Source of the DNA: an uncultured Verrucomicrobia subdivision 3 bacterium
GTDB taxonomy: Bacteria; Verrucomicrobiota; Verrucomicrobiia; Limisphaerales; UBA11358
Direction of reading: 5' to 3'
Length of the DNA: 63,431 nt
Assembly (NCBI GenBank): GCA_903911825.1
Contig: CAIWFB010000050.1
Location: 1-63,431 of the forward strand
The notes beneath the pieces are model-generated. The model made no database searches and had not been told where the DNA came from. It saw nothing but the letters and a program-made list of their open reading frames with translations. The translations under genes and the position numbers were made by a program. Shown one piece after another: positions 8,138 through 56,590 of the stretch (its first letter is position 1; every line of letters starts with the position of its first letter).

Positions 8138-11100
8138 ATGATCAAAACTAAATTTAAAACTAGGAGTCAGGGTGTCCGAGTAATTGCACGTAAATGTTTG
8201 TTAGCCTCGATGATGCTTGGGTCTATGCTTCTGGGGGCATCGGCTTTTGCGCAAACTGTGACGCTAACGAATATTTCGGGATTTAAGGTTTTTGCCGGCG
8301 GTGGTGGTTATAGCGGATCCTATACAAATGTGCAGATTAGGGCGGTTTTAACAGGGGATTTTACCACCGTTCTCAATCCCGTGACATTATCCGTTTCTGG
8401 TGCGCCGGCCGGATTGACTACAGTTTTTTTGACTAATAATTTTACTGGTAGCCAAACGCTTTTTTTAAATTTCGGGGTTACAAATGTTGCTAAGGGTGTT
8501 TACCCGCTTACTTTCTCAGCAACGACCAACGGTCAGCCGATTGGCAATACCTTAGTAATTCCGTTGATTGTGGGAACACTTTGGACAAACAGCAATCCTG
8601 CGGGGGATGTGACGTGGGCAAATTCCGCAAACTGGAGCGGTGGCGTGCCTGCTACTGGTGACGATGTTATGTTCCAAGATGCCGGCTATAACACAAACAC
8701 TCTGGGTGGTTCAGTTTCACTCAATTCCCTCTCTTTTATCCGTAATCTCTCTGGCACTAACCAGAATATGGCTATTGCCGCTGGTCAGACAGTTCAGGTT
8801 CTTGGAACCAATGGCTTTGCGGTGAATGTGGATTCTTTTCCCGGGAACAACAAGACCACGACAGTTAACATTTTTGGCGCTGGTGGCACGTTGTTGGTTT
8901 CCAATACGGCAGCAAACTTCACTGTAAATGGCGTCAGCACGAGTGGAACTGGCACAACTTTGGGCATGGCAAACTTAGATACGCTCAAAGCTTATGTCAG
9001 CAGGTTTTGTTCAGGAGACTTCACAACCGCGTTGCAGGGATTGGTTGGCAATGGTGGCACGAGTCCTCAAGGCACAAGGTTGGATTTGGCCAAAACCAAC
9101 ATCATCTATGCTACGTATGTGGGCGACTATACAACTACCAATCCGATACTGACGGCGATTTCATACGAAAATCACTACGATGGTAATAATGGTGGCACTG
9201 CACCTCTCAACTTAGGGCTTAATACCACTATTCAAGCAGATGCGATGATTTTTGGTCAGGGCAAATCTGGCGGAAGCAGTTCGGCTGTCCAAATAAATTC
9301 GAGCTTTGTGAATCTCCGTCCTTCCGCATCTTTCCGTAATACGAATAATGGCAGAATCACACTTTTAGGTGTGGCTATTGACAGTGGAACTACGACAAAC
9401 ACGGGTAATAACTCCCGGATGATCTTGAATCTGAATAATGTCAATGTGGACATGTTAGTTGACACAATTTGGTTGGGGCGCAACCGCTTGTTCTCATCTT
9501 CCCCCAACACTCTCAACCGTGGTAATCTGCTATTTGATTGGGGCACGATTAATGCGAACACCATTCGTGCGGGTTATCAGGCTTATACGGGTGAAGGTCT
9601 TTGTCAGGCAGATATCACGGTTGGTGGAAATTCTACAAACACTGCACTACTAGTAGTTAACACTGAGCTAAATCTTGGTTACACTGCTGGTGACTGGGGC
9701 GCGGGGAATGCCGTCAGAAATTTTGGCCGTTTAACTATTGCAACGAATGGGACGGCCCGGGTGAATCAAGTCACGGTTGGCACATTAAGCACCAACAATA
9801 CGATTACAATTCAAAACGGCGGTGTGCTAGTGCTTAGCAATGCTGTTGCCTCGCCAGTCAAGGGTTTGACTACTTTGGCAATGACTGGCGGATCGCTTAC
9901 TCTGTCCGCAGTTGCCGGAACTACAAATATTTTTGTGACAAATTTAACAACCACCGTCGGCAGCAAAATTAACATTAATTCCTTGTCGGGGTTTGTCTCA
10001 TATCCGGCTACCAACGTCATTATCAAGTATGATATTGCCTCTGATCACTCGTCACTCGGAATTGGCGCATTGCCTCCTGGGTTTAACAACCTTTTGTTGA
10101 ATGACAACACTGCTAATAAAACTATCGAGTTGATTATCAGCACCAATGCACCTCAGTCTTTGGTGTGGAAGGGTCCCGGTTCGATTTGGGATCATTCAAG
10201 CTATAATTGGGTTTTGGCAACTAATACTTCCATAGCCGCAAAGTTTACCGATGGTGACAAAGTCATTTTCAATGATACGGCTGGCGTGCCTACGGCGATT
10301 ACGATTTCTGAAATCGTAGCTCCTAGTCAGACTGGTATCGGTATCTCATTTACAAATTCCGTTAACAATTATGTGTTCACCTCTACGAGCCCTAACGGTA
10401 TTTCTGCGGGTTCTTTGAATAAATATGGCACCGGCTCGGTTCAAATGGATGCCTTCGCCAATGTAACTGCTCAAATTAACGCAGGAAAACTTTTTGGCAG
10501 TGGTGTTCTGGCTTCGGTGGTGACCGCTAATAGCACTTTCTTTGGTTGGTCTGGACAGGTGATGGGGAGTTCGTCTATTGGTGGTGGTGCCACGAATAGC
10601 GGCACTTTGAGTTCAGTTACTGTCAGTGCTGGCGGTTCTCTTACTAATAACGGCACAATTTCCGGAACTTTCACGGTAAACACAAACGCTTTGCTCTACA
10701 ATAACGGCACAATTGCCAATCTCGGGACATCAACGGTTGATTCAGGTGGCAGAATGGTTAATGCCGCTGGAAGTATAACTGGATTTTCAATTAGCGTTTC
10801 AGGGGTGTTTGAAGACGCTGGTATTAGTCCAATTAAGTTGTCCGCTACTGCCTCTGGTGGGCAGCCAGCAGGTTTAGATATTAAAGGCGGTGGTCTATTT
10901 GTGCCCGGTGGATCAGGGATTGGAACCACTACTGTTTTGCAAACATCGGATAACGATCCCCTTGCGTCAGGAAATGTGAAGTTTAATCCGGGCTCTACCA
11001 ATATAATCAAAGTTGATCCCGGTGCGGCTGGTCAGAAAAATACCAAGGTGCTATCTAATATCCAATTTTTGGGTGGTAGTCATGGTTTGCCGCTCGTGGC

Positions 11101-11566
11101 GGATGGGGGCACGGTGGTAATGACCAATGTTGGAGCTACGCCATTTGCAGCTGGTCAATCATTTAAGTTGTTCGGCACGCAGCCTTCTGATGGATCGTTC
11201 AATCCTGACATTTTCCCGCTGAACACAACTAACGCGCTTCCAATCATGGTCCCGGCCCATCCTGCATTTGGCCTAGATTGGGATTTGAGTCAGGTTATCT
11301 ATGATGGAACGGTAACAATTGTTGCCTCCGCTTTGCCGCAGACTCCTACTAATATCGTCTTATCAACTTCTGGTAATACCATGACGCTTTCATGGCCTAC
11401 CGAATACACTGGTTGGCGTCTGCTTTCGCAAACGAATACTTTAAGTATCGGGTTGAGCACTAATTGGGCAATAGTAGGTGGTTCGACCACTAATAATTCA
11501 GTAACCATCACTAACAACCCTGCTAATCCGTCTGTCTATTACAAGTTGTCGTATCCTTATCCGTGA
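8138..11566 (+). CDS. Large G/T/N/S-rich secreted beta-helix/autotransporter-repeat-like surface protein with C-terminal sorting-like domain
   Basis: Signal peptide ending ASAFA; W..SANWSGGVP..GDDV.F and VWKG...WD....NW...F.DGD.V.FND motifs; degenerate LNKYGTG repeat; no autotransporter barrel; C-terminus LSWP..YTGWRL...W...VYYKL. Confidence 0.85.
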   Translation: MIKTKFKTRSQGVRVIARKCLLASMMLGSMLLGASAFAQTVTLTNISGFKVFAGGGGYSGSYTNVQIRAVLTGDFTTVLNPVTLSVSGAPAGLTTVFLTNNFTGSQTLFLNFGVTNVAKGVYPLTFSATTNGQPIGNTLVIPLIVGTLWTNSNPAGDVTWANSANWSGGVPATGDDVMFQDAGYNTNTLGGSVSLNSLSFIRNLSGTNQNMAIAAGQTVQVLGTNGFAVNVDSFPGNNKTTTVNIFGAGGTLLVSNTAANFTVNGVSTSGTGTTLGMANLDTLKAYVSRFCSGDFTTALQGLVGNGGTSPQGTRLDLAKTNIIYATYVGDYTTTNPILTAISYENHYDGNNGGTAPLNLGLNTTIQADAMIFGQGKSGGSSSAVQINSSFVNLRPSASFRNTNNGRITLLGVAIDSGTTTNTGNNSRMILNLNNVNVDMLVDTIWLGRNRLFSSSPNTLNRGNLLFDWGTINANTIRAGYQAYTGEGLCQADITVGGNSTNTALLVVNTELNLGYTAGDWGAGNAVRNFGRLTIATNGTARVNQVTVGTLSTNNTITIQNGGVLVLSNAVASPVKGLTTLAMTGGSLTLSAVAGTTNIFVTNLTTTVGSKININSLSGFVSYPATNVIIKYDIASDHSSLGIGALPPGFNNLLLNDNTANKTIELIISTNAPQSLVWKGPGSIWDHSSYNWVLATNTSIAAKFTDGDKVIFNDTAGVPTAITISEIVAPSQTGIGISFTNSVNNYVFTSTSPNGISAGSLNKYGTGSVQMDAFANVTAQINAGKLFGSGVLASVVTANSTFFGWSGQVMGSSSIGGGATNSGTLSSVTVSAGGSLTNNGTISGTFTVNTNALLYNNGTIANLGTSTVDSGGRMVNAAGSITGFSISVSGVFEDAGISPIKLSATASGGQPAGLDIKGGGLFVPGGSGIGTTTVLQTSDNDPLASGNVKFNPGSTNIIKVDPGAAGQKNTKVLSNIQFLGGSHGLPLVADGGTVVMTNVGATPFAAGQSFKLFGTQPSDGSFNPDIFPLNTTNALPIMVPAHPAFGLDWDLSQVIYDGTVTIVASALPQTPTNIVLSTSGNTMTLSWPTEYTGWRLLSQTNTLSIGLSTNWAIVGGSTTNNSVTITNNPANPSVYYKLSYPYP

Positions 11567-11599
11567 GGAAAGAGGCGTAACCAGCTAGTTGTTATTTTC

Positions 11600-11701: not shown

Positions 11702-13114
11702 ATGAATCGCTACTCGTTTCTGAAGTTCGCCGCTCTCTCGGTGCTATGTATGTTGCCGTCCGTTGTTTCTGCGGCGGTGCCGCTGGCTTTTCCCACGGCG
11801 GAAGGTTACGGACGATTTGCTCAAGGCGGGCGTGGCGGGCGAGTCTTGCACGTCACCAACCTGAATGATTCTGGCCCTGGCAGTTTGCGTGAAGCGGTCG
11901 AAGCGACGGGTTCCCGCACGGTGGTGTTTGATGTGTCGGGCCTGATTACGTTGGAATCGCGTCTCATTATCCGCAAAACCAATTCCGATCTCACTATCGC
12001 GGGCCAGACCGCACCTGGCCAAGGTATCTGCCTGCGCAAATATAATTTCGGAATGTTGGGCGCAACCAATGTCATCATCCGTTATATGCGTGTGCGACCC
12101 GGAAACCTTTCTGGCACCACGCTTGATGGTATGGGCATGGCTTCGGCCAATGATTGTATCATTGACCATTGCTCAATTAGTTGGACGCTGGATGAGGCGT
12201 TCAGTTCGCGCGGAGCGCACAGCATCACCTTGCAACGCACGCTGATTTCCGAGGCCCTTAACGCCGCTGGCCACAAAAAATATCCGCCGGGCACGCAGCA
12301 CGGTTACGCCGCTAGCATCGGTGGCGATGTCGGCAGCTTCCACCATAACCTTCTGGCGAACTGCGAGGGTCGTAACTGGAGTCTGGCGGGTGGGTTGGAA
12401 AAGAAAACCTCCGCCTACGCTGGTCGCATGGATTTGCGAAATAACGTCATTTTTAACTGGAAACACCGTGCGACCGACGGCGGTGCGCATGAGGTCAACT
12501 TCGTCAATAACTTCTACCAACCCGGCCCGGCAACGGATTTTTTCTATGCCCTCAATGCACAATACGGAGGCTTCCCCGGCACGCAGCAATATTATTTTGT
12601 CGGCAACGTTATGCCGGGACATTTTGGTCTGACGAATCAAGAAGTTGGTCGCGAGGCCACCACCGAACGGGGAGGGAAAATTCCCGTGGAGTATTCGCCG
12701 TGGGTTGATAAAGAATTTTTTCCGTCATTCGTGAAAACGCAGAGTGCCGCCGAGGCCTACACGAATGTCCTCGCCGATGTTGGTTGTAATTTCCCGGCGC
12801 TGGATGCCCACGACCAACGCATTATCGCCGAAGTTCGCAGCGGTATTCCCAAATTCAAAGGCAGCAAAACTGGCTTGCCCGGTTTACCGGATTCTCAGGA
12901 CGACGTGGGTGGCTGGGATGATTATCCGGAAGTTCATCGAGCCGCTGATTGGGATACGGACGGAGACGGCATTCCCGACGCTTGGGAAAAATCTCACGCA
13001 CTGAACCCAAAAGATGCCAGTGATGCGAACAAAGATTTGAACGGCGATGGCTATACGAATCTCGAAAAATATCTCAACTCGCTCGTCGGCGAATACTCGC
13101 TGGCCAAGCACTGA
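11702..13114 (+). CDS. Pectate lyase, PL1 (subfamily 2-like), secreted
   Basis: AFPTAEGYGRFAQGGRGG, VTNLNDSGPGSLR, TIAGQTAPG, IIDHCSISW..DE, C-terminal DTDGDGIPDAWE and DGYTNLEKYLN. ATG at 11702. Confidence 0.92.
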   Translation: MNRYSFLKFAALSVLCMLPSVVSAAVPLAFPTAEGYGRFAQGGRGGRVLHVTNLNDSGPGSLREAVEATGSRTVVFDVSGLITLESRLIIRKTNSDLTIAGQTAPGQGICLRKYNFGMLGATNVIIRYMRVRPGNLSGTTLDGMGMASANDCIIDHCSISWTLDEAFSSRGAHSITLQRTLISEALNAAGHKKYPPGTQHGYAASIGGDVGSFHHNLLANCEGRNWSLAGGLEKKTSAYAGRMDLRNNVIFNWKHRATDGGAHEVNFVNNFYQPGPATDFFYALNAQYGGFPGTQQYYFVGNVMPGHFGLTNQEVGREATTERGGKIPVEYSPWVDKEFFPSFVKTQSAAEAYTNVLADVGCNFPALDAHDQRIIAEVRSGIPKFKGSKTGLPGLPDSQDDVGGWDDYPEVHRAADWDTDGDGIPDAWEKSHALNPKDASDANKDLNGDGYTNLEKYLNSLVGEYSLAKH

Positions 13115-18660: not shown

Positions 18661-20247
18661 ATGAAACCGACCGCGAAATACACAAAATACGCGAACGCCG
18701 TATTGGTTTGGCGTTTCGTCTTTCTGCTTGCGGGTTTGGCGTATTTTGTGGTTCAAAATTCTTTCGCTGCCGATTTCGCCATCCTCAAGCCGGCGGACTT
18801 TGCCCATCACGTCGAGCGATTCAACGCGATGGAGGATGAGAATGTCACCAACACTATCTCCAACGCCGATTCATGGAGCTGGCTGCAAAACGAAATCCCC
18901 TTCTTCGACTGCCCCGACAAGGAAGTGGAAGAGATCTATTATTTCCGTTGGTGGTCATTCCGCAAACATTTCGTGCAGACCACGAACGGCTGGGTCATCA
19001 CCGAGTTTCTCACGCCGGTCCGCCATGCCGGGATTCATAACACCATCAGTTGCGCCGCTGGTTTTCATCTGGCGGAAGGCCGCTGGTTGCGTGACCAGAA
19101 TTTTCTAAATGACTACACGACGTTCTGGCTACGCGGCAATAACGGCCAATCGCAGCCGCATTTTCACAAGTTCAGTAGTTGGTTTGCCTCCGCTGCTTAC
19201 GACCGTTTTCTGGTGAACGGCGATAAAACTTTTCTCACGAACTTGCTCGCGGATTTTGTCGCCGACTATCGCGTTTGGGAAAACGAACGGCTCACGACCA
19301 ATGGTCTGTTCTGGCAATACGATGTCCGCGACGGTATGGAAGAATCCATCTCCGGATCCCGCACGAATAAAAATCTTCGGCCCACGATCAATAGCTACAT
19401 GTTCGCCAACGCTCAGGCTATCGCCGCCATCGCTCGGTTGGGAGGAAGTAAAAAAATCGCCAAAGAGTTTGCCACGAAAGCTGGGAAATTAAAAAAACTC
19501 ACGCAGGAAAAACTGTGGAGTGAGAATGCCAGTTTTTTTGAGGTGCGCCGCGCGGATGGCAGCTTGGCCAACGTGTGCGAGGAATTAGGTTTCATTCCGT
19601 GGATGTTTAGCCTGCCGGACGATAACAAAAAATTTGCCGTCGCTTGGACGCAGTTTATCATCACACAAGGTTTTCAAGCTCCAGCTGGTCTCGCGACGGC
19701 TGAGCGCCGGCATCCGCAATTTCGTTCGCATGGCGTCGGCACCTGCGAATGGGACGGCGCCATCTGGCCGTTCGCGACGAGCCAAACGCTTGATGCGCTC
19801 GCCAATTTTCTGCGCGACTACCGGCAGGACGTGGTGACGCCACACGATTACTTCCACACTTTTCTCGCCTACACCCACAGCCAGCACGCCAACGGTAAGC
19901 CGTATCTCGGCGAATACCTCGACGAAATCACCGGCGATTGGATCAATGGCAAAGGCGGTCGCAGTCGCTATTATAATCACTCCACCTACGCCGATTTACT
20001 CGTCACGGGTGTCATCGGCTTGCGTCCGCGCGCTGATAACGCAGTGGAGATTTCTCCGCTGCTGCCGGCGGACGCTTGGGATTATTTTTGCCTCGATGGC
20101 GTGTCCTACCACGGGCATAAGCTCACGATTTTTTGGGACAAAGACGGCTCTCGCTACGGTCGCGGAAAAGGATTTGTCGTTCTAGCCGATGGCAAAGAGA
20201 TTGCGCGCGTCAGTCAATTGTCGAAAATCAAAGCCCAGCTGCCATGA
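18661..20247 (+). CDS. (alpha/alpha)6 glycoside hydrolase, GH142-like (beta-L-arabinofuranosidase type; MGH1/GH63-like fold)
   Basis: FNAMEDEN, YYFRWWSFRKH, DGMEESISG, RPTINSYM, CEWDGAIWPFATSQTL, RSRYYNHST; matches the recalled C-terminal module of BT1020. Confidence 0.8.
   Translation: MKPTAKYTKYANAVLVWRFVFLLAGLAYFVVQNSFAADFAILKPADFAHHVERFNAMEDENVTNTISNADSWSWLQNEIPFFDCPDKEVEEIYYFRWWSFRKHFVQTTNGWVITEFLTPVRHAGIHNTISCAAGFHLAEGRWLRDQNFLNDYTTFWLRGNNGQSQPHFHKFSSWFASAAYDRFLVNGDKTFLTNLLADFVADYRVWENERLTTNGLFWQYDVRDGMEESISGSRTNKNLRPTINSYMFANAQAIAAIARLGGSKKIAKEFATKAGKLKKLTQEKLWSENASFFEVRRADGSLANVCEELGFIPWMFSLPDDNKKFAVAWTQFIITQGFQAPAGLATAERRHPQFRSHGVGTCEWDGAIWPFATSQTLDALANFLRDYRQDVVTPHDYFHTFLAYTHSQHANGKPYLGEYLDEITGDWINGKGGRSRYYNHSTYADLLVTGVIGLRPRADNAVEISPLLPADAWDYFCLDGVSYHGHKLTIFWDKDGSRYGRGKGFVVLADGKEIARVSQLSKIKAQLP
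18669..18753. repeat. Inverted element with 9-bp-periodic arms inside the signal-peptide coding region
   Basis: Left arm gaccgcgaaatacacaaaatacgcgaa; the right arm 18728-18753 reverse-complements to aaccacaaaatacgccaaacccgcaa. Confidence 0.6.
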
Positions 20248-30594: not shown

Positions 30595-30677
30595 ATTAGC
30601 CGCGCAATTTTCTCAAATCATTTCGCAGAAATTAGCAATCAGAACGTGTCGCTGCCATGGTATCTTTGGCGTATTCC

Positions 30678-42400: not shown

Positions 42401-42601
42401 GGTGGCGACGAGAATTTGATAGGCCGACTGTTTCGCGCCGCGCGCATCCGTCTGAAGCTGCCAACTTAAACGCGGTTGCGCGGCATCGATTCCTTGCGGA
42501 TTGATCAGATGTTCGCAGCGCAGTTCGCCGACGGAAAAGGCCTTAGCTAAGAGTGGTAGTCCGGTAAGAACAACGAGAGCGAGGAGCAGGGGGCGTAGCA
42601 T
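39425..42601 (-). CDS. Alpha-L-rhamnosidase, GH78, secreted (conserved base Glu appears as Asp)
   Basis: LRCEHLINP, DLGQNMVGW, HGFRFVE, PTDCPQRDERQGWLGD, GATTIWDLWNG, MNSGNH. Confidence 0.92.
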   Translation of the reverse strand: MLRPLLLALVVLTGLPLLAKAFSVGELRCEHLINPQGIDAAQPRLSWQLQTDARGAKQSAYQILVATSQAKLKSGQADLWDSGKVISDESVLVTYAGKPLAARTECFWQVRVWDASGKPGKWSQSAKWTMGILDVAGWHAKWIGQDSADATNALAGTAWIWTSKTETGDSVSAETNYFRRVVTIPANRKIKRAIFEDTGDNECRGWIDQFDLGARNSFKTVKWNNVTTRLEPGKTYLFGLTGRHESTNKNPAGVISLLTIEFTEGEPLVIQTDEKWKVSRNPEDGWNTAGFDDSKWVAAKIIGPAGMEPWGETRVPEDRRQPARYLRKEFTIEKKIARATVSFSGLGLSELYVNGKKTGDAVLSPAFAQYDKREFYVTYDVTKDLQRGANALGVILGNGRFYADRSKVYAGTVSFGFPKLLLNLRLEYADGSISEVVSDESWKLTTDGPILANNDFDGEEYDARKELPGWSRPKFNDSKWLLAQLVSAPGGVLSAEMQPPIRVTQTLKPISVTEIKPGVFIYDLGQNMVGWCRLRVSGLAGTPVTLRHAETLKTDGSLYMANLRGAEVTDIYTLKGGGEEIWEPRFVTHGFRFVEITGFPGKPDLNSLEGHVVNDDLPSAGNFSCSNELINRIYTNIVWGTRGNYRSIPTDCPQRDERQGWLGDRSEECKGEAYLFDISALYSKWRQDMADAQRTNGSIPDVAPAYWPIYSDNVTWPSSAIIIPSALERQFGDRGNIAKSYASAKLWMDHMLTFAKDNIISKDNYGDWCVPPEEARLIHSKDPARQTDKTLLATSYFYYDLCLMEKYAAQLGKTDDAARWKILAADFKAAFNAKFLNREKGQYSNGTQTSCVLPLAFGLVPEDMKAKIFATLVANIENVTKGHIGTGLIGGQYLNRVLSDNGRADLCYTIASQKAYPSWGYMVEQGATTIWDLWNGNTADPTMNSGNHVMLVGDLVVWFYEYLAGIAPASPGFKTIKMQPHPVGDLTFVKATHNSPYGKISSEWQRDGYKFDWQIEIPANTTAGVTIPTGKSGQITCNGKSVAASIELGSGKYHIISQ

Positions 42602-48017: not shown

Positions 48018-48737
48018 TTAAGGTCGGAATGCGGCGAGCGAATGGATTTGCTTGAAACTGCGCGCTGGCTGCCAACGATTCGCCACTCGAAAACTTGCCC
48101 GCTCTAATTGCCGCGCAACTTCTGCGGGACAGTGTTCATGGCAGGGCGCAGAAATGATGCGAGAATAACTCTGCCAAAGCAGCCGCCCAAAAACGTCGCC
48201 CCAACCTGAACCGAGAAAGATCTGCCGCGTGGTGAACCACCCGCCGGGCTTCAAAATCTCGTGCCAGCCCGCCGCCAATTGCGGCAATTCTTCCTTACGA
48301 AAAAACTGCAGAAAATTATCCGTCTCGATCCAGTCAAAACTTTCAGCGGCGAACGGTAGCCGCAAGGCATCGCCCATTTGCAGCGTGATTTGGTTCGTTC
48401 CACCAATCCGGCAAGCCCGCAAACGCGCCCGCGATTTTTCCAAAACTTCCTGGCGCACGTCAAATAAAGTGATGCGGGCGGCGGGAGCAATTTCTAAGGC
48501 GAACCGACAGAAAGTTTCCGCCGTATTCACCGAACCCACGCCACAAAGTAAGAAGTGACCCTCGCCCGTGCGGAAAAGGTTCGGCTGCGTTTGGCGCGCG
48601 CGCGCTAACGAATCCGCATAAACCCTCCGCAGATAGTTGCGGTGCGCGTCGGGATTCGTGAGCCACGAATAAAGAAAATACCGGCGGAAACGCTTGGTTT
48701 GCGAATCCGCCGGTTGGGAAAGCTGCGTGGGGCTCAA
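48018..48737 (-). CDS. Class I SAM-dependent methyltransferase-like protein
   Basis: [29 protein letters not shown]; start overlaps the clpP stop. Confidence 0.75.
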
Positions 48738-49354
48738 GCTTTTTCTGCGCCCGGAATTTCTTTGCGCGACTGCACGACCAAGTCCACGAGGCCGTATTTC
48801 TTGGCTTCTTCCGCGCTCATGAAATTATCGCGGTCGCAATCCTTCTCGACCTGTTCAATCGTCTGGCCCGTGTGCTTGGAGAGAATGCCGTTCAACGTAT
48901 TCTTTAACTTGAGCATGTGTTTCACACGAATTTCCACATCACTCGCCTGACCTTCCGCACCGCCGAGCACTTGATGAATCATGATGTTCGAGTGCGGCAG
49001 CGCAAAACGTTTTCCCTTCGTGCCCGCGCATAACAGCACCGCGCCCATGCTCGCCGCCTGACCGATGCAGTATGTGTTAATGTCGCAGGTCATGTATTGC
49101 ATCGTGTCGTAAATCGCGAGCCCCGCCGACACGCTGCCACCAGGCGAATTGATGTAGAAATGCACGTCCTTCTTCGGGTCGGTCATCTGCAAAAACAGGA
49201 GCTGCGCGACAATAACGTTGGCGATACCGTCGTCTACTGGCGTGCCGAGAAAAATAATGCGGTCAACCAACAGCCGCGAAAAAATGTCGAACTGGCGCTC
49301 GCCGCGCGCCGTCTGCTCGATGACGGTGGGATACGGAATAATCGAATTTTGCAT
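48734..49354 (-). CDS. clpP: ATP-dependent Clp protease proteolytic subunit
   Basis: [34 protein letters not shown]. Confidence 0.97.
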
Positions 49355-49398
49355 GGCAAAATAACTACTTCATTTTTGCGCCAAGTAAAGGCGGGAAG

Positions 49399-49498
49399 TT
49401 TTAACCACGGAGGGGCACATATGCACACAGATAAAAAGGGAAGCTCCCGTGCTCACAGATTCTGCATCCGTGTTTATCTGTGTCCATCTGTGGTTAAA
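49399..49498. repeat. ~100-bp inverted element with 10-bp-periodic (acacagat) arms, copy 1
   Basis: ttttaaccacggaggggcacatatgcacacagata ... atccgtgtttatctgtgtccatctgtggttaaa. Confidence 0.85.
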
Positions 49499-49986
49499 TA
49501 AATTCCCCACAGCAACACAAAGCAACTCGCGAAATCTTCCGGCTTTTCCTGAACCCATTTGGTCACCGCTTCCGGCGAGAACCACCCGCCCGTTTCGATT
49601 TCCTCGGGATGCAAGACGAAAGGGCCTTCGCTGGACGCACGATAGATCCAGCAAAATTCCCAGCCCGTATCCGCGCAAGCCTCAATTTTGAAGAGCCGCT
49701 GCGGCGTTTGCGTCAGGTGCAGGCTGATCTCCTCGCGCACTTCGCGCACCGCGCAGGCATCATAAGCCTCGCCCGTGTCCAAGTGGCCGCTCGACGACGA
49801 ATCCCATTTGCCAGCCGCGACATCCTTCTTCATGGAGCGCTTCTGGAGAAATACCTCGCCGCGCGCGTTGAACACCAGCACATGAATCGCGCGATGCCAC
49901 AACCCGCGTGCATGGACTTCCTTGCGCGGCGCTTGACCGATTACTTCATCGCGTTCATTGACGACATCGAAGATTTCTTCGCTCAT
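49474..49986 (-). CDS. NUDIX hydrolase (IDI type 1-like)
   Basis: HARGLWHRA, LQKRS..KD...G.WD, GHLDTGE....AVREVREE. Confidence 0.9.
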   Translation of the reverse strand: MSEEIFDVVNERDEVIGQAPRKEVHARGLWHRAIHVLVFNARGEVFLQKRSMKKDVAAGKWDSSSSGHLDTGEAYDACAVREVREEISLHLTQTPQRLFKIEACADTGWEFCWIYRASSEGPFVLHPEEIETGGWFSPEAVTKWVQEKPEDFASCFVLLWGIYLTTDGHR

Positions 49987-49987
49987 A

Positions 49988-50887
49988 TTATTTCTCGCCC
50001 AGAACTTTCGTCAAAGCCACGAACTGTTCCAGACTCAATTTTTCCGCACGTTCCATTGGCGAGATATTTAGTTCTGCAAACGCCGCCGCCAGCTTGTCGG
50101 CGGCCCAATCTTGTTTGAGCAATTTCATCATCATCTTGCGGCGTTGCGAGAAGCCGCGCTTGACGATTTTTTTGAAGGCGGGCCTGAGCGTTTCTGGCAG
50201 CAGCGGCGTCGCGCGGCGCACGAGGCACACGCACGCGGAGTCCACGTCGGGCGAGGGGAAAAAACATTCCGGCGGAATCTTGAACCATTCGCGCGGCTTG
50301 AAATCAATTTGCACGAGCAGCGTGAGCAAGCCGTAATCATCGTCATCCGCCTTGGCCATCAAGCGTTTGGCGACTTCGAGTTGCAGTGTGGCGACAATCA
50401 TCTTCGGCGCGCGCACGCCAGTGGCAAGTTCCACCAGCAGCGGCGAGGCGACGGAGTAGGGCAGGTTGGCGACGAGTTTCCAATCGCTCCAATCGCGCTG
50501 TTCGCGTTTGAGAAAAGAGAGTGCGTCATCGTGGAGCAAATGAAACGCGCCGCGCTCGTTGGCGGCGGGAGCTTTGGTCAGTTGGCCAGCCAACGCGGGG
50601 GTAAGTAATTCGGCGGACTGTTCCTGCGCGCCGAAACGTTGCGCCAGAAATTCCACGAGGCGGCCATCAAGTTCGACAGCGAGCACTTCATCGGCTTTGT
50701 CCAAAAGCAATTCGGTGAGCGGCCCCAGTCCGGGTCCGACTTCGAGCACTTTGTCGGTGGGCGCGAGCTGTGCAGCGTCGACGATGCGCCGGAGTTGGTT
50801 GCCATCGTGCAGAAAATTCTGGCCGAGCGATTTGGTGAGCTGGATGTCGCGCTTGGCCAGCAGTTCGCGCATTTGGGTGAGATTCAT
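49988..50887 (-). CDS. rsmA: 16S rRNA m6,6A1518/1519 dimethyltransferase
   Basis: SLGQNFL, LEVGPGLG.LT, VANLPYS, Q.EVA.R, F.P.P.VDS, FSQRRK. ATG at 50887. Confidence 0.96.
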   Translation of the reverse strand: MNLTQMRELLAKRDIQLTKSLGQNFLHDGNQLRRIVDAAQLAPTDKVLEVGPGLGPLTELLLDKADEVLAVELDGRLVEFLAQRFGAQEQSAELLTPALAGQLTKAPAANERGAFHLLHDDALSFLKREQRDWSDWKLVANLPYSVASPLLVELATGVRAPKMIVATLQLEVAKRLMAKADDDDYGLLTLLVQIDFKPREWFKIPPECFFPSPDVDSACVCLVRRATPLLPETLRPAFKKIVKRGFSQRRKMMMKLLKQDWAADKLAAAFAELNISPMERAEKLSLEQFVALTKVLGEK

Positions 50888-50896
50888 GGGGGGAAA

Positions 50897-50994
50897 TTTA
50901 GCCACAGATGGACACAGATAAACACAGATGGGAAAACTGGTGGTCTTTATTGTGGAATTTCACTGTGTGCATCTGGGTTAATCTGTGGTTAAAA
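50897..50994. repeat. ~100-bp inverted element with 10-bp-periodic arms, copy 2
   Basis: tttagccacagatggacacagataaacacagatg ... cactgtgtgcatctgggttaatctgtggttaaaa. Confidence 0.85.
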
Positions 50995-52267
50995 CTTTTT
51001 TCAACGCGGTGACCGCGTGGGTTAGTTGGGCTTTGGTGATGGTCAGCGGCGGCGTGAAGCTGATGATGTTGCCGTGTTCGCCTTCGGGTAAAAAAATGTA
51101 GCCGAGGTGGAGCAATTGTTTGATGGCTTTAAGGGCAACTTCGGTGGCGGGCTGGCCGTTGGGCAAGGTGAGTTCTACGCCGACCATCAGGCCGCAGCCG
51201 CGATTGGAGTTTTTATTTTTTAATTTTGAATTGTTGATTGAGCCAAGCTCGTTCAGTAAAAATTTTCCAAGCGTCGCACTCCGTTCGCACAGTTTGAGGC
51301 GGCGAATTTCCGCGATTTGCGCCAGCGCCATCGCGCAGCCGACGGGATGGCCGAGAAAGGTGCTGGTGTGGATGGCTTCGCCGTTCGAGATGGGCCATGC
51401 GGCATCCATCAAATCGGCTCGACCCACGCAGGCGGACAACGGTAAGCCGCCGGTGAGCGCTTTGCCGAGACAAATTAAATCCGGTGTCACCCCGCTGTGT
51501 TCGCAGGCGAACCATTTGCCAGTGCGCCCGAAGCCGGTGTAAATCTCATCGAGAATCAATAACGCGCCGTGTTCATCGCAAAGCTGGCGGAGCAGGGGGA
51601 GAAATTCTAGGGGCGGAATATTGGTGCCGCCGCGCGCTTGAATGGGTTCGAGGAGAATCGCGCCAATTTTTTCGCGGCGGAAAAGTTGGCGGATGGCTTT
51701 TTCGGTCTGGGCAAGCTCTTCAGTTTGCGTGGGATATTTTACAAAGTTACCGAACTCGCGCAGTTGGGATTTGAACGGGCGGCGAAAATGTTCACGATGT
51801 GTGGCGTTTAACGCACCGTAGCCTAGGCCGTGATACGCGCCCTCGAAAGCGATGACGCCGCGCTTGCCGGTTGCGAGCATGGCGGTCTTGAGCGCGGATT
51901 CGACGGCTTCAAAGCCGGAGTTGGAGAAGATAACTTTGCCAGTTTTTTTGCCCCAACGTCCGAAGGTGAGGCGGCTCAATTCGCAGGCAAGCTGCGCTTT
52001 GAGTGCGTGCGGATGCACATCGCCCATCGCGTGCAGTAGTTTTGCCATCTGCTTTTGGCCGGCGCGAACGACGTTTGGGTTCGCATGGCCAGCGGCGGCG
52101 ACGCCGAAGGCGGCGGTGAGATCTAAATATTTTTTGCCTTCCGCATCCCAGACGTGAACGCCTTGGGCGCGTTCCCAAACAATCGGCCACGAGCCATCGG
52201 GATCGAGGAACGTGATGTTCCGCGACTCGAAGATGCGCAGCTGGGTAATGATTTTCTGGGTTTTCAT
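50978..52267 (-). CDS. Class III PLP-dependent aminotransferase
   Basis: GKKYLD, NSGFEAVESALK, FEGAYHG, EPIQARGG, DEIYTGFGRTG, LGKALTGG. Confidence 0.93.
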   Translation of the reverse strand: MKTQKIITQLRIFESRNITFLDPDGSWPIVWERAQGVHVWDAEGKKYLDLTAAFGVAAAGHANPNVVRAGQKQMAKLLHAMGDVHPHALKAQLACELSRLTFGRWGKKTGKVIFSNSGFEAVESALKTAMLATGKRGVIAFEGAYHGLGYGALNATHREHFRRPFKSQLREFGNFVKYPTQTEELAQTEKAIRQLFRREKIGAILLEPIQARGGTNIPPLEFLPLLRQLCDEHGALLILDEIYTGFGRTGKWFACEHSGVTPDLICLGKALTGGLPLSACVGRADLMDAAWPISNGEAIHTSTFLGHPVGCAMALAQIAEIRRLKLCERSATLGKFLLNELGSINNSKLKNKNSNRGCGLMVGVELTLPNGQPATEVALKAIKQLLHLGYIFLPEGEHGNIISFTPPLTITKAQLTHAVTALKKVLTTD

Positions 52268-52268
52268 T

Positions 52269-52365
52269 TTTAGCCACGGATGGACAAAGATTCACACAGA
52301 TGGGGAAAATTTCCATCCGTTGCGAACCTGAATCTTTGATGATCTGTGTGCATCTATGGTTTCAA
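52269..52365. repeat. ~100-bp inverted element with 10-bp-periodic arms, copy 3
   Basis: tttagccacggatggacaaagattcacacagatg ... atctttgatgatctgtgtgcatctatggtttcaa. Confidence 0.85.
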
Positions 52366-53105
52366 ACTCCGCGTTGTTCCGGCGGCCAGATGACTTTGTG
52401 TTGCTGGATCTGAAAGCGCACGGGCAAAGCATCGGCGATAATTTTTTCCACCAGTTCAACGCGTGAAATGGGCGTGAGTCCGGCGGGAACTTTTTTGAGC
52501 ACTTTATTCTGCTGCTCCGGAGTGAGCGGATGCACCCACGAAAACAGGAGCGGGCAGATGGCGTCGAGCTTGTGCGTGGCAATCTGCTGCTTGGCCCAGT
52601 CGTAATCTTCCTGCGTGCCGATGACGAATTTGATTTCGTCCGTGGCTTTCAGGTGTGGGAGATTTTCAAAACGGTTGCGGGCGACTTCACCGCTGGTGGG
52701 GCATTTCAGATCCACGATGCGATGCACACGCGGATCAATCTTAGAAACGTCGTGCGCGCCGCTGGTTTCGATGAGCACGGTGAAGCCCGCATCGCACAGC
52801 TGCTGCATGAGCGGTAGCGAATTTTTCTGGAGCAACGGTTCGCCGCCGGTGAGTTCGACGAGGGGCAATTTGAGATTTGAGATTTGAGATTTGAAATCCC
52901 CGAACGATGCGGCTTGTCGTTTCACTTCCGCGAGAATGTCCGTGAGCGTCTGTTTTTTGCCTTCCGTAAAAGCGTAGGCGGTGTCGCAGAAAGAACAGCG
53001 GAGGTCGCAGCCCGTGAGACGGATAAAAATACACGGGAGCCCAGCAAAAGTGCTTTCCCCTTGCAGGCTGAGATAGATTTCGTTGACGAGGAGCGTTTCG
53101 GACAT
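52362..53105 (-). CDS. queE: 7-carboxy-7-deazaguanine synthase (radical SAM)
   Basis: EIYLSLQGE, FIRLTGCDLRCSFCDT, TGGEPLLQ, IETSG, DEIKFVI, QQHK.IW. Confidence 0.92.
   Translation of the reverse strand: MSETLLVNEIYLSLQGESTFAGLPCIFIRLTGCDLRCSFCDTAYAFTEGKKQTLTDILAEVKRQAASFGDFKSQISNLKLPLVELTGGEPLLQKNSLPLMQQLCDAGFTVLIETSGAHDVSKIDPRVHRIVDLKCPTSGEVARNRFENLPHLKATDEIKFVIGTQEDYDWAKQQIATHKLDAICPLLFSWVHPLTPEQQNKVLKKVPAGLTPISRVELVEKIIADALPVRFQIQQHKVIWPPEQRGV
52866..52897 (-). repeat. 7-bp tandem array (caaatct) within queE
   Basis: Plus strand caatttg agatttg agatttg agatttg aaat, encoding FKSQISNLKL. Confidence 0.8.
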
Positions 53106-53355
53106 CGGGCATAAAAATATCGCAAGGGGCAAAATTAAACAGGATTTTTCGACGAAGAAGCGGATTTGAATTCAGGACATTTCTGTCTATAAAATTGGCG
53201 GCAGCCTTTTCCTTTTTCTGAAATCGGGGAGCAAAAAGTTCCCTAATTTACGGATTTTTTTTCCGAAAGCGGCAAGGTTTTCCTGAGCCAAAAATTGTTT
53301 CAAATAATTCGCTGCGCGGGCTTCAGTCTTCGGTTTTTCTTCCGAAAAACAGTCG

Positions 53356-54909
53356 GTGAAATGCGTCGTTTTAGCGCGAATATGGCTGGTTGTTTTGGTG
53401 GGCTTTTGGCCGACTTCAGGAACTCTGCGGGCGGGTGATCTTGAGGTGATTGGCGGGGCGTTGATCCAATCCTTGGTGACCAACCTTGATGGCGCGGGTG
53501 TGGCGGTGCTGCAGCCGGAAGCGGGGGAGTCGGCAGCGACCAATTGGCAGGTGAATCCCACTGTGCTCGGTCAGCAAAACGAAGTCTTCACGTATTCGGC
53601 CAGTGGTGGTTCCACGAATCAATTTCCCAATACGCTGGGCGGAAGTTCTAGTCACGCGGGCGCGGTGGCAAAAAATTTTCACGCGCTGGCACCGGGTAGT
53701 CTTCGTTTGGATAATTGCGAGGCGAGTTATTTTTACAGTTCAATTGTTTCGCAGTTGGCGACTAATTTTAACAACCCGCTGGCCAATCAGAGCTTCACTT
53801 TTGGAAATGTTTCGGCGAGTGCGCAGCAGACGATTGATTGGAATTATGATAACTACGCTTCGCAATATAATACGCTCTTCATTTCGGCAGCGAACAATGG
53901 TGGCACCGTCAGTCCGCCCGCCACTAGCTACAATGGTTTGGCGGTGGGTGCTTACAACGGGAGCTCCAGCGTGGGGCCAACGATTGATAATGGACGGGCC
54001 AAACCAGATTTGACGGCTCCCGGCAGTTCGACGAGCTATTCCACCCCACTCGTCACGGGGGCGGCGGCGTTGTTGCGGCAAGCCGCCGTGCGCGGCGATG
54101 GTGGTGACACGAATGCGGCGGCGGATCTGCGCGTGACCAAGGCGTTGCTCCTAAACGGCGCTATCAAGCCGGCGGGTTGGACGAACCAATTTCCATCGCC
54201 TTTGGATAAACGCTACGGTGCGGGCGTGGTGAACGTCTTCAATTCCTATCGCCAATTGACCGCCGGGAAAAAAAATCCGAGTGCGATGTTTTTTACGGCC
54301 ACGAATAGTGCGCATGGCGTGGCGGGAAGCGCGAATCCCATCAATGCCTTGAGCGGTTGGGATTACAATACCAACTCAAGCGTCGCGGGGAGCAACGGCG
54401 TGAGCCATTATTTCTTCAATGTTACTAATGGGATTGCCGAAGCCACCTTCACGGCTACGGCGACGTTGGTGTGGAACCGCCATTTGCGTAAAACGGGTAT
54501 CAACAATCTGGATCTATATCTGTATGAGGCCGATTCCGGCGCGTGTGTGGCGGTCAGCGCGAGTTTGGTGGACAACGTAGAACATCTCTATCTGCCCCGG
54601 CTGATGCCTGGGCGTTACGATCTGCAAGTTGTAAAAAATGGGGGCACTATGATCAGCGCCACTGAGCCGTATGCGTTGGCGTTTGAATTTTTCTCAATGC
54701 CGCTCAAGGTCGCGCCCTCAGCCAATGGTCTAGTGCTGACATGGCCGGTTTATCCGACAGGCTTTACGTTGCAGATGGCGACCAATCTGGTGCCGCCTTT
54801 GGTTTGGACGCCGCTGACAAATGTAACCGTGCTAGTCACCAATAATGAAAATTGCGCGGTAGTTTCGCCAACTGAGGGCACTCAAATTTTCCGATTGAGT
54901 CGCCAGTGA
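53356..54909 (+). CDS. Secreted S8 subtilase-like protein, atypical triad, with C-terminal sorting-like domain
   Basis: VAVLQPEAG, SHAGAVA, SAANNG, GRAKPDLTAP, TSYSTPLVTG, KALLLNGA, YGAGVVN. Confidence 0.82.
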   Translation: MKCVVLARIWLVVLVGFWPTSGTLRAGDLEVIGGALIQSLVTNLDGAGVAVLQPEAGESAATNWQVNPTVLGQQNEVFTYSASGGSTNQFPNTLGGSSSHAGAVAKNFHALAPGSLRLDNCEASYFYSSIVSQLATNFNNPLANQSFTFGNVSASAQQTIDWNYDNYASQYNTLFISAANNGGTVSPPATSYNGLAVGAYNGSSSVGPTIDNGRAKPDLTAPGSSTSYSTPLVTGAAALLRQAAVRGDGGDTNAAADLRVTKALLLNGAIKPAGWTNQFPSPLDKRYGAGVVNVFNSYRQLTAGKKNPSAMFFTATNSAHGVAGSANPINALSGWDYNTNSSVAGSNGVSHYFFNVTNGIAEATFTATATLVWNRHLRKTGINNLDLYLYEADSGACVAVSASLVDNVEHLYLPRLMPGRYDLQVVKNGGTMISATEPYALAFEFFSMPLKVAPSANGLVLTWPVYPTGFTLQMATNLVPPLVWTPLTNVTVLVTNNENCAVVSPTEGTQIFRLSRQ

Positions 54910-54934
54910 GCTGGAATTTTAGCGGGGATGGCTT

Positions 54935-56590
54935 ATGCTTCGGCCAGTTCCGATGATAAAACATTTTTGGCATTGCCTGGTGCTGGTGACGTTCTGGAAC
55001 AGCTTAACCGCGCACGGCGGGGCGACGTTGGATGTGATCGGCGTCAGCGCCTTGCGTGCGATCACGACCAACCTCGACGGACGGGGCATTCGCGTGGCGC
55101 AGCCCGAGGCGTCCGGTCAGAACGACACCAATTTTGAGGTGAACCCAAATTTCATTGGGCAGCCGCAAAGTCTCTTTACCTATATTTCGGCAGCCGGCAC
55201 GGATACGAATTTCCCCAACCTCGTCGGCGGCTATTCGGGGCACGCGAAAGATGTGGGTAACACTTTTTACAGTCCCATTTTTTTTGGGGTAGCGACGAAT
55301 CTCGCGCACGTGGATAATTTCGACGCTAATTATTTTTATACGAACTACATTGGCTTACCGAGTCTCACCGCCATTGGCGATGCGATTGTGAATCAAAGTT
55401 TCACGTTCGGAAATGTCGTGACCAACTTGCCCACCCCGGCCAATCAGATTTCCGTGGCCGATCAGCAACAAGTGGATTCGGAATACGACAACTACGCGGA
55501 GCAAAACCACACCCTGTTCATTTCCGCTGTCAACAATGGCGGTTCAGTCAGTCCGCCGGGAACAGCTTACAATTCCATCGGCGTGGCCGCCTTTGCCCTG
55601 CCGCCGTATGGGGGCAGTTCTAGTATCGGGCCGACGGTGGACAATGGTCGTTGCAAGCCCGATATCACTGCGCCGGCGGATTATACCAGTTTTTCCACGC
55701 CGCAAATCGCGGGGACGGCGGCGCTGCTATTGCAAGCCGGGTTACGTGGCGATGGCGGCAGTGACACGAATGCCGCCGCCGACATTCGCGTGCTGAAAGC
55801 GTTGCTATTAAATGGTGCCGTGAAGCCGTTGAACTGGACGAATGGTGCGGCCACCCCGCTGGATGCGCGCTACGGTGCTGGCGTGGTGAATGTGCTAAAT
55901 ACTTACCAGCAACTTGCCGGTGGCAAGCATGGCTACACGGTTTCCGTGTCCGTTTCCACGGGCGCCGCGCATCCGCCGACGGGCGCGACTGGCACCGTGA
56001 GCGTCTTGAGTGGTTGGGATTTTAATACTAATTCCAGCAGCGTGCCGAATGACGGGGTGAACCACTATTATTTCAACGTCACGAACAGCGTGGCCGGACA
56101 AAAATTTCTCGCCACGGCCACGTTGACTTGGAATCGGCATTACAACGCGACCTATTTGATTAGCCCTGCTAGTATCAATGATCTCAACCTATTTCTCTAC
56201 AACTGTGCCAACAGTAATCTCGTGATGTGCAGCACCAGCCTCGTGGACAATGTCGAACATCTTTACGTCACTAATCTGGCGCAGGGCCGCTACGATTTGC
56301 AGGTTTTGAAACGCGGCGGCCTCGGCACGGTGAGCAACAGCGAAGCGTATGCGCTGGCGTTTGAATTTGTCGCCCCACCGTTGTTGACGGTCAGCGCGGG
56401 CACCAATTCTGGCTTGGGGTGGCCAATTTATCCGGCGGGATTTTTAGTAGAGGCGCGCACGAATCTGCTCGCCGGTGCTTGGCAAACCAATGGCGTGCCG
56501 GAGGTAATTTTTACGAATGGTCAGAGCAACATCCGGTTGAGCACGACGAATGCGCAGCAGTTTTTCCGGTTGCGGCGGCCGCATTTTTGA
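54935..56590 (+). CDS. Secreted S8 subtilase-like protein, paralogue of the preceding gene
   Basis: IRVAQPEAS, GHAKDVG, SAVNNG, GRCKPDITAP, TSFSTPQIAG, KALLLNGA. Confidence 0.85.
   Translation: MLRPVPMIKHFWHCLVLVTFWNSLTAHGGATLDVIGVSALRAITTNLDGRGIRVAQPEASGQNDTNFEVNPNFIGQPQSLFTYISAAGTDTNFPNLVGGYSGHAKDVGNTFYSPIFFGVATNLAHVDNFDANYFYTNYIGLPSLTAIGDAIVNQSFTFGNVVTNLPTPANQISVADQQQVDSEYDNYAEQNHTLFISAVNNGGSVSPPGTAYNSIGVAAFALPPYGGSSSIGPTVDNGRCKPDITAPADYTSFSTPQIAGTAALLLQAGLRGDGGSDTNAAADIRVLKALLLNGAVKPLNWTNGAATPLDARYGAGVVNVLNTYQQLAGGKHGYTVSVSVSTGAAHPPTGATGTVSVLSGWDFNTNSSSVPNDGVNHYYFNVTNSVAGQKFLATATLTWNRHYNATYLISPASINDLNLFLYNCANSNLVMCSTSLVDNVEHLYVTNLAQGRYDLQVLKRGGLGTVSNSEAYALAFEFVAPPLLTVSAGTNSGLGWPIYPAGFLVEARTNLLAGAWQTNGVPEVIFTNGQSNIRLSTTNAQQFFRLRRPHF

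Follow-up and report, generated by a model that had tools for sequence, protein, structure and literature searches.

Enrichment of the dipeptide Thr-Asn in exported proteins of a Verrucomicrobial order, a candidate lineage-specific extracytoplasmic motif

The window analyzed in this study is a contig of 63,431 nucleotides (CAIWFB010000050.1, assembly GCA_903911825.1) from an uncultured Verrucomicrobia subdivision 3 bacterium (order Limisphaerales, UBA11358). A first-pass annotation of positions 8138-56590 had pointed to an abundance of the dipeptide Thr-Asn (TN) in the exported proteins, and we analyzed this dipeptide in the window, in the whole genome and in related and unrelated genomes. In a single Verrucomicrobial order, the majority of soluble exported proteins are under strong selection for TN, and the effect is specific to both the lineage and the compartment. 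Our best guess, a tentative one, is that TN represents a lineage-specific extracytoplasmic modification or recognition motif.

Thr-Asn in the exported proteins of the genome

The window is contig C50 of a genome (G000) of 3.9 Mb in 354 contigs, which is 91.5% complete. Genes were called with a self-trained hexamer model (n = 3265; stop-to-stop, they cover 93% of the DNA) and their products were divided by a heuristic signal-peptide (SP) and hydrophobicity rule into 881 SP proteins, 663 transmembrane (TM) proteins, and 1721 ‘cyto’ proteins. This classifier errs both ways: in the window it flags the SDR, Gfo/Idh/MocA, and ThiD proteins as SP and misses the pectate-lyase-like protein. Such mistakes blur the difference between SP and ‘cyto’ proteins and can therefore dilute the TN contrast but cannot create it. 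The expected count of a dipeptide was calculated per mature protein as nT x nN / L and checked by composition-keeping shuffles, and O/E stands for the ratio of observed to expected TN. We should note that the other genomes were sampled in part (45-200 kb each for same-order genomes).

The 881 SP proteins contain 3504 TN, compared with 1814.8 +/- 39.4 in shuffled sequences (maximum 1892 in 100 shuffles), and 1415 NT. The enrichment proposed from the window is thus far larger genome-wide (3504 vs 1815 expected), and the asymmetry between TN and NT, which had been said to go beyond composition, survives the composition-keeping test that had been proposed for it. Within the SP class, no other of the 400 dipeptides departs from expectation nearly as far as TN (z 39.6; runner-up SG 14.2), and Thr precedes 16.8% of all Asn in this class vs 8.7% in the ‘cyto’ class.

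Only this ordered pair is affected. Among the x-N pairs of SP proteins T alone is raised (1.93; S 0.77, D 0.77, others 0.71-1.08), and among the T-x pairs N alone is raised (Q 0.69, S 0.79, D 0.90). The inverse pair NT is at 0.78, TT and NN are also below 1, and T..N at gaps of 1-3 have an O/E of 1.03-1.04. Clustering of polar residues was therefore ruled out as the cause. A DNA-level cause was ruled out as well: of the eight ACN-AAY codon pairs, all but the two with ACT (1.03 and 1.38) show an increase of about 2.0-2.7 fold and, since the excess is distributed over most Thr x Asn codon pairs, its cause lies at the protein level. The flanks of TN are nearly information-free (at most 0.12 bit). 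At the second position behind the Asn there is a preference for V, L, T, P, and I, though not Ser, and an avoidance of K (0.24) and R (0.31); Pro immediately after the Asn is at 0.56, and charged residues are depleted around TN.

The effect follows the compartment. When proteins are matched for composition (T+N <12%), 1309 ‘cyto’ proteins contain 806 TN vs about 774 expected (1.04), and 464 SP proteins contain 761 vs about 420. The ‘cyto’ class as a whole has an O/E of 1.31, which is due to a minority of T/N-rich, plainly extracellular proteins (mis-called starts, contig-end cuts); cytoplasmic proteins of the genome with distant orthologues are at expectation (71 vs 71.8). Compared with cytoplasmic proteins, exported ones contain more T and N and less K and E. 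The O/E of SP proteins is 1.7-2.1 in five of six composition bins (1.26 in the bin with T+N <8%), and similar values were obtained for lipoproteins (1.81), other SP proteins (1.94), proteins with loosely defined Tat-like signals (1.89), and all five size classes. A simpler second gene caller reproduces the SP value (1.92). TN density lies between 5.2 and 9.4 per 1000 aa and is flat along the mature chain, without an N-terminal peak, which rules out a special role beside the signal-peptide cleavage site.

The excess is widespread without being uniform, which qualifies the first-pass annotation. A two-rate mixture fitted to 609 SP proteins places 72% at an O/E of 2.29 and 28% at 0.92, and the same model for ‘cyto’ proteins gives 23% at 2.11 and 77% at 0.97. 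Among 788 SP proteins, 63% lie above their own expectation; TN exceeds NT in 57% and falls below it in 16%. The top 10% of SP proteins supply 1138 of the 1666 excess TN, with giant repetitive proteins among the richest. The 286 confidently high-TN SP proteins are richer in Cys, and the 27 confidently low-TN ones are long, Cys-poor, and Gly-rich and resemble outer-membrane proteins.

Thr-Asn in the window

In positions 8138-56590, 17 exported proteins (10,334 aa) contain 134 TN and 55 NT, and 2000 shuffles gave a mean of 54.1 TN (sd 6.8, maximum 80). Nine cytoplasmic proteins of the window (a block at 48018..53105 plus DHDPS at 17763, SDR at 35125, and Gfo/Idh/MocA at 35887) contain 3 TN and 3 NT (shuffle mean 3.9). 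The features are as follows.

8138..11566, + strand: surface protein, exported, 1142 aa, no Pfam family; TN 33, NT 19, expected 15.1
11702..13114, + strand: exported protein, 470 aa, no clear family; TN 6, NT 0, expected 1.6
18661..20247, + strand: MGH1-like glycoside hydrolase, exported; TN 5, NT 2, expected 1.7
20244..23351, + strand: DUF6298 protein, exported; TN 7, NT 1, expected 2.7
23358..24275, + strand: xylose-isomerase-like TIM-barrel protein, exported; TN 2, NT 1, expected 0.4; DATNA after the predicted cleavage site
25895..28561, + strand: predicted lipoprotein, no Pfam family; TN 6, NT 3, expected 2.8
28585..30594, + strand: GH127 beta-L-arabinofuranosidase-like enzyme, exported; TN 9, NT 3, expected 2.2
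30657..33482, + strand: pectate-lyase-like protein with Big_9 domain (PDB 9buj match, E 8e-38); TN 20, NT 4, expected 6.9 (counted from start codon 30723)
33479..34462, + strand: GH43-like protein, exported; TN 4, NT 1, expected 1.0
34459..35112, + strand: DUF3826 protein, exported; TN 2, NT 0, expected 0.9; AETNA after the predicted cleavage site
53356..54909, + strand: subtilase paralogue, exported; TN 12, NT 3, expected 4.0
54953..56590, + strand: subtilase, exported; TN 16, NT 3, expected 4.4
5204..7168, - strand: GH141-like enzyme, just outside the range of the first-pass annotation; TN 8, NT 0, expected 2.6
39425..42601, - strand: GH78, exported, little excess; TN 5, NT 3, expected 3.2
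2418-5129: GH78, exported, little or no excess; TN 4, NT 6, expected 2.7
13118-14812: exported protein, little or no excess; TN 3, NT 5, expected 2.1
14817-16496: exported protein, little or no excess; TN 1, NT 4, expected 1.8
24373-25893: exported protein, little or no excess; TN 2, NT 2, expected 1.8
38328-39428: BNR protein, exported, little or no excess; TN 1, NT 1, expected 1.4
48018..53105, - strand: cytoplasmic block of methyltransferase, ClpP, NUDIX, RsmA, aminotransferase, and QueE-like radical SAM proteins
803-2284, - strand: extracytoplasmic function (ECF)-type sigma factor that carries, behind its sigma domains (residues 23-181), a fused C-terminal extension of about 300 residues

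The earlier hand counts for the surface protein, GH127, the pectate lyase, and both subtilases are exact. Of the eleven cytoplasmic enzymes that were said to share a single TN, ten (PolX, ClpP, RsmA, QueE, ThiD, NUDIX, DHDPS aldolase, SDR, Gfo/Idh/MocA, and aminotransferase) indeed hold one, with about 5.0 expected, and the eleventh, GNAT, is not among our gene calls. In the ECF-sigma fusion all four TN had been placed behind a TM segment; they do lie beyond the sigma domains, in the C-terminal extension (residues 290, 352, 403, and 483), but our scan found no clear TM segment in this protein. TN follows the predicted cleavage site in two proteins as described (AETNA at 34459, DATNA at 23358), a position that the flat density along the chain shows not to be preferred genome-wide. 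Little or no excess is present in either GH78 or in the proteins at 13118, 14817, 24373, and 38328, in line with the heterogeneity seen across the genome.

The region 2418-42601 is a rhamnogalacturonan-II (RG-II)/pectin-type degradation cluster with two GH78, GH141, GH127, GH43, apiosidase-like, DUF3826, DUF6298, pectate lyase, and BNR proteins and MFS transporters. It resembles the RG-II loci of Bacteroides, but without a SusC/SusD pair. Pfam Peptidase_S8 matches the tandem subtilases (53356-56590) only with the C-terminal part of its profile (104-288 and 112-288), a PDB search at E<=0.001 gave no relative, and both appear by sequence to form a divergent subtilase clade. Their last ~90 residues form a conserved beta-rich domain ending in Q-F-F-R-L-(R)-x-P. 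The motif F[FY]R[LVI] lies among the 20 C-terminal residues of 71 proteins of the genome (42 SP), which are very TN-rich (1216 vs 582), and the terminal domain that it ends may be a sorting or anchoring domain. Shine-Dalgarno-like words are scarce genome-wide (GGAGG in 51 upstream regions) and the DNA upstream of start codons is AT-rich; translation initiation is therefore probably largely Shine-Dalgarno-independent.

Gain and conservation of Thr-Asn sites

The GH127 enzyme allows a view of single sites. In 120 close homologues (>=70% identity) we found 1058 TN and 130 NT with 261 expected, and the nine TN sites are 89% conserved, well above dipeptides in general (58%) and NT (30%). In the Bacteroides thetaiotaomicron structure 5mqo only one of the nine sites is TN (FYTNPL); seven align to PE, NK, AD, TT, QQ, ND, and KK, and one falls in an indel. 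None is TN in 4qjy or 6ex6. Likewise, none of the seven aligned TN sites of the GH141-like enzyme is TN in B. thetaiotaomicron BT_1002 (5mqp), which has DG, SH, ER, AA, VN, PN, and EN there, so that at three sites Thr arose in front of a pre-existing Asn. As judged from these alignments, the TN sites of both enzymes were acquired within this lineage, at positions where the Bacteroides proteins have polar or charged residues, and were then conserved. Among 150 cluster representatives of GH127, the excess is confined to those of >=50% identity (11 proteins; 28 vs 13, O/E 2.17); the 139 representatives below 50% identity have an O/E of 0.95-1.19, and the 49 with a signal peptide by the heuristic rule contain 117 TN vs 107.

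A similar picture emerges for the subtilase at 54953..56590, whose 120 homologues (>=57% identical) contain 1720 TN and 340 NT with 524 expected, with SN at 312 vs 521. Its TN columns are 68% conserved vs 40% for all dipeptides. Counting each site once over 61 exported proteins that have orthologues in relatives gave a conservation of 0.43 for TN (bootstrap 0.34-0.52); T-x reached 0.32, x-N 0.34, NT 0.30, and all dipeptides together 0.38. In 176 cytoplasmic proteins TN conservation (0.50) equals the average (0.50). The effect across the 61 exported proteins is real but moderate, and the intervals touch.

Predicted structures place the sites as follows. In a poor AlphaFold model of GH127 (predicted local distance difference test score, pLDDT, 58.9), TN lies mostly at helix ends and in inter-helix loops. 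In a moderate model of the subtilase (pLDDT 68.2, predicted template modeling score, pTM, 0.74), about 11 of the 16 TN are in coil, one starts a helix and one lies inside a helix. Because the Bacteroides equivalents are charged or polar, the alignments suggest that TN positions are surface sites.

Distribution across lineages

The excess extends to relatives. In 80 pooled loci of related metagenome-assembled genomes (MAGs; 1.27 Mb), 237 SP proteins contain 559 TN vs 300.7 expected, and 237 NT; the 693 cytoplasmic proteins of the same loci contain 273 TN and 273 NT, with 307.9 expected. Taking SP and TM proteins together, six of the nine same-order genomes sampled are raised at P<0.01:

G014: O/E 2.44
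G018: O/E 1.82 (NT raised too, 1.34)
G016: O/E 1.72
G011 (same genus): O/E 1.63
G017: O/E 1.48
G015: O/E 1.46

The bias of G020 is weak (1.34, cytoplasmic 1.25), and G013 is bias-free (0.79; TN 58, NT 57, expected 73.7); the sample of G019 is too small for a reading. Four relatives (the genomes of loci L042, L056, L058, and L059) seemed bias-free in a 20-kb locus and reach an O/E of 1.28-2.41 in about 100 kb, which indicates that heterogeneity between small loci is noise.

Outside the order, seven of the eight Verrucomicrobiota sampled have no excess (pooled TN 144, NT 148, expected 157); the eighth, G027, has an O/E of 1.50 (P 0.02). No excess was found in the SP proteins of 250 kb of E. coli K-12 (TN 39, NT 56, expected 60.9; 0.64), nor in the 52 SP proteins of a Bacteroidales sample (TN 85, NT 81, expected 86.0; 0.99), which comprises 185 kb of records of Parabacteroides distasonis and Bacteroides finegoldii that are rich in polysaccharide utilization loci. 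An equal enrichment in other phyla had been named as a result that would speak against selection; the excess is instead lacking in E. coli, in Bacteroidales, in distant GH127 homologues, and in the Bacteroides GH127 and GH141 structures.

Some public MAG contigs with a gene closely related to that of the window aminotransferase are probably mislabelled, carrying Bifidobacterium, Klebsiella pneumoniae, Akkermansia muciniphila, Dongiaceae, or Methylomirabilota titles (among them L043, L050, L054, L055, L059, L064, L066, L089, L094, L095, and L120).

Sequons and candidate enzymes

Known glycosylation sequons are not enriched in the SP proteins of this genome, neither the canonical N-X-S/T (N-X-T 1.10, N-X-S 1.03; N-X-[ST] 3321 vs 3153) nor the Bacteroidota sequon D-[ST]-[AILVMT] (888 vs 1021; 0.87).

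Several families could supply a transferase. The genome encodes three Wzy_C proteins (W1, W2, and W3). W1 (contig C47, 19486-21399) is an orphan gene that combines Wzy_C with C-terminal TPR and has no other Pfam domain at E<=1e-4. It has full-length orthologues of 37-58% identity in eight of the nine same-order genomes searched, being absent from weak-bias G020; outside the order only homologues of 28-29% identity were found, in two of eight genomes. W2 is an orphan Wzy_C gene as well. W3 adjoins a GT9 heptosyltransferase and is probably the O-antigen ligase WaaL. Like W1 it is confined to the order; it has matches in eight of nine same-order genomes (not G020), with identities of 24-27% in four, and is present in bias-free G013. 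Twelve PMT_2 GT-C proteins were found, two of them TMTC-like with TPR. For the TMTC-like P4, GT-C-domain matches occur only in G011 and G014. With a TMTC-like query (contig C57, 7322-9046), the 5.2-Mb genome of G011 shows a very large expansion of TMTC-like GT-C + TPR membrane proteins, with 79 matches, many in tandem arrays (for example C1 120-139 kb, C5 126-132 kb, and C6 693-702 kb), and G014 has about 8; in the other families of the order that were searched the query gave TPR-level matches only, or none at the E-value limit (G017). Finally, two TMEM260-like (DUF2723) membrane proteins of about 1000-1200 aa are encoded (contigs C261 4454-4960 and C48 10538-10999). Their distribution across the phylum is patchy (17 of 41 genomes), and of 14 control genomes only that of Bacteroides thetaiotaomicron encodes such a protein. 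NCBIfam gives no useful name for the candidate enzymes.

Interpretation

We propose that TN acts as a short linear motif, shaped by both positive and purifying selection, in the majority of the order's soluble exported proteins. Sites are gained, probably on surfaces, in place of polar or charged residues, often by a Thr set before an existing Asn, and then retained, and a lineage-specific extracytoplasmic factor would read them. A modifying enzyme would be the most economical candidate for the reader, with O-glycosylation of Thr as the closest precedent, an assignment that we make with reservation. The factor would most likely act on the Thr hydroxyl, by motif-directed general O-glycosylation, and less likely on the Asn; modification, chemistry, and enzyme alike are what we infer from the pattern of sites. 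In its most far-reaching form, this proposal would have the order run a general extracytoplasmic modification with the two residues Thr-Asn as its sequon. After that of Bacteroidota, this would be only the second motif-driven O-glycosylation in bacteria and, unlike the first, would have a site density under selection, with extra sites forming a protective coat on ~70% of exported proteins; the transferase would come from a family new to protein glycosylation. We consider this possible but doubtful. Selection for a periplasmic modification site, as put forward in the first-pass annotation, is in part borne out by an ordered, residue-specific, and exported-only excess, but glycosylation itself is a tentative reading, and no profiled candidate enzyme tracks the bias.

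A number of observations weigh against a modification read from TN. Restriction to Thr, with Ser-Asn depleted (0.77), is unusual for O-glycosylation. The excess is missing from the 28% of SP proteins at an O/E of 0.92 and is low in 26 prepilin-type proteins (1.19), and 34 exported proteins of the genome with distant orthologues contain 51 TN and 57 NT with 43.8 expected. Membrane topology gives no clear contrast: by the positive-inside rule the O/E of TM proteins is 1.54 outside vs 1.18 inside, and that of one-TM proteins 1.26 vs 1.16 by membrane side, while the two-TM ‘sensor-like’ class is contaminated by exported giants and the H-box kinases are only three proteins, void as a contrast between membrane sides. 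Six of the 16 TN in the subtilase model lie at the C-terminal ends of strands, which fits a purely structural role too. The positive control failed as well: the sequon D-[ST]-[AILVMT], which is established by experiment, occurs 58 times vs 68.0 expected in the 52 Bacteroidales SP proteins (37 vs 40.4 in cytoplasmic ones). A two-fold enrichment alone is thus no pointer to glycosylation. The chance level in Bacteroidales fits the remark of a review that about half of non-cytoplasmic proteins carry this sequon (PMC12871550), and it follows that motif frequency neither proves nor excludes use. As for enzymes, the profile of STT3 (PF02516) has no match in the 91.5%-complete genome, in a search whose control found four archaea. 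W1 is present in bias-free G013, the TMTC-like GT-C is missing from bias-positive G015, G016, and G018, and TMEM260-like proteins occur in all 11 order genomes, including G013, as well as in bias-free G025 and G043. No profiled candidate (STT3, TMEM260-like, TMTC-like P4, W1, or W3) therefore follows the TN bias, and the co-distributed oligosaccharyltransferase or GT-C protein suggested in the first-pass annotation did not emerge among them. With a single clearly bias-free genome in the order, this test of co-variation has little power.

The failed control and the strand ends would suit an unmodified structural or biophysical motif, in which TN terminates strands or caps helices at the surface and replaces charged pairs for stability, solubility, or protease resistance, with no enzyme to read it. 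We regard this as a serious though somewhat unlikely alternative. The coil, strand-end, and helix N-terminal sites of the subtilase, the helix ends in the poor GH127 model, the substitution of TN for charged or polar pairs, the depletion of charged residues nearby, and the T/N-rich and K/E-poor composition of exported proteins all agree with it. Such a motif would, however, be expected in the cytoplasm and in other organisms, whereas cytoplasmic TN is at 1.0, E. coli at 0.64, Bacteroidales at 0.99, seven other Verrucomicrobiota are neutral, and even G013 of the same order has 58 vs 73.7. Moreover, the sites do not share one context but lie in coil, at strand ends, at helix caps, and in mid-helix, and the near-equivalent cap Ser-Asn is depleted rather than enriched. 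The lineage and compartment specificity would equally be accounted for if TN were bound by a non-enzymatic factor peculiar to the lineage (for instance a chaperone of the periplasm, a component of quality control or sorting, or an outer-membrane route) that handles soluble exported proteins and not barrels. The outer-membrane-like character of the 27 low-TN proteins, the Cys-richness of the 286 high-TN ones, and the very TN-rich set of 71 F[FY]R[LVI]-tailed proteins are in keeping with such a factor. We nonetheless judge it improbable: sites occur several per protein at even density, lipoproteins (1.81), non-lipoproteins (1.94), and the size classes do not differ, no candidate factor was found, and we know of no chaperone or secretion signal that is a dipeptide.

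That the signal reflects ancestry or artefact (expanded TN-rich families, repeats, local composition, or errors in gene calls or signal peptides) is largely refuted and very improbable. The concentration of 1138 of 1666 excess TN in the top 10% of SP proteins, the giant repeats among the richest, and the heuristic classifier would point that way. Against this stand the 63% of 788 SP proteins above expectation, the O/E of 1.7-2.1 in five of six composition bins and its constancy over all size classes, the values below 1 for NT, TT, and NN, and the second gene caller (1.92); in addition, single-copy GH127 and GH141 gained TN site by site.

The TN signal is exceptionally strong (z ~40) and predicts thousands of sites. 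Members of this order are abundant in soil and freshwater, where they degrade polysaccharides. If a modification of TN exists, their secreted enzymes would carry a coat that bears on the stability of these enzymes and on their expression in other hosts. If there is none, TN still constitutes a clean lineage- and compartment-specific dipeptide rule that current protein-composition models do not predict.

Comparison with known systems

A search of the literature accessible to us turned up no publication dealing with a Thr-Asn motif or with the glycosylation of proteins in Verrucomicrobia. Known systems nevertheless offer several points of comparison for a Thr-Asn modification. PMT, TMTC1-4, and TMEM260 are GT-C protein O-mannosyltransferases that act on the luminal or periplasmic side in eukaryotes and actinobacteria. 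The genome has 12 PMT_2 and two TMEM260-like proteins, but the profiled distributions depart from the bias, and to our knowledge no T-N motif is associated with these enzymes. Enzymes of the PglL/PilO type, the O-oligosaccharyltransferases of Neisseria and Burkholderia, belong to the Wzy_C superfamily and are not known to have a strict sequon, and this genome has three Wzy_C proteins. Such enzymes are the subject of two papers (PMC8423747, PMC11130364), the former of which describes the Burkholderia enzymes as preferring Ser. Here, in contrast, TN is restricted to Thr; W1, which is restricted to the order, has only Wzy_C and TPR in Pfam and occurs in bias-free G013.

Within the same superphylum, the S-layer protein of the anammox planctomycete Kuenenia stuttgartiensis is O-glycosylated at a short proposed motif, G-T/S-X, with the sites not localised (PMC5088730). 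This concerns one protein and another motif, and the deviant dipeptide in our genome is not GT. The PglB/STT3 system of Campylobacterota (sequon D/E-X-N-X-S/T) is periplasmic, sequon-directed, and involves Asn (PMC12871550). It differs in that our genome lacks an STT3 match, N-X-S/T is not enriched, and Thr precedes Asn in TN.

The closest likeness is to the motif-driven general O-glycosylation of non-cytoplasmic proteins in Bacteroidota, which the review presents as the sole known O-linked system of motif-directed general glycosylation in bacteria, with a transferase that is still unknown (PMC12871550). The Bacteroidota system and TN share a short motif, a restriction to non-cytoplasmic proteins, one large lineage, and occurrence in hundreds of unrelated proteins at surface positions, probable ones in the case of TN (PMC12871550); for TN this restriction is seen in the O/E of 1.93 in SP proteins vs 1.04 in composition-matched cytoplasmic ones. 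The motifs themselves differ. The Bacteroidota sequon is D-(S/T)-(A/I/L/V/M/T), whereas TN is Thr-only, lacks the preceding Asp, has Asn following, and is known here from sequence counts. The Bacteroidota sequon is also at chance in Bacteroidales (58 vs 68), whereas TN is about two-fold enriched in the SP proteins of our genome. If Thr-Asn does direct a modification, a second and unrelated motif in another phylum would imply that motif-directed systems arose more than once.

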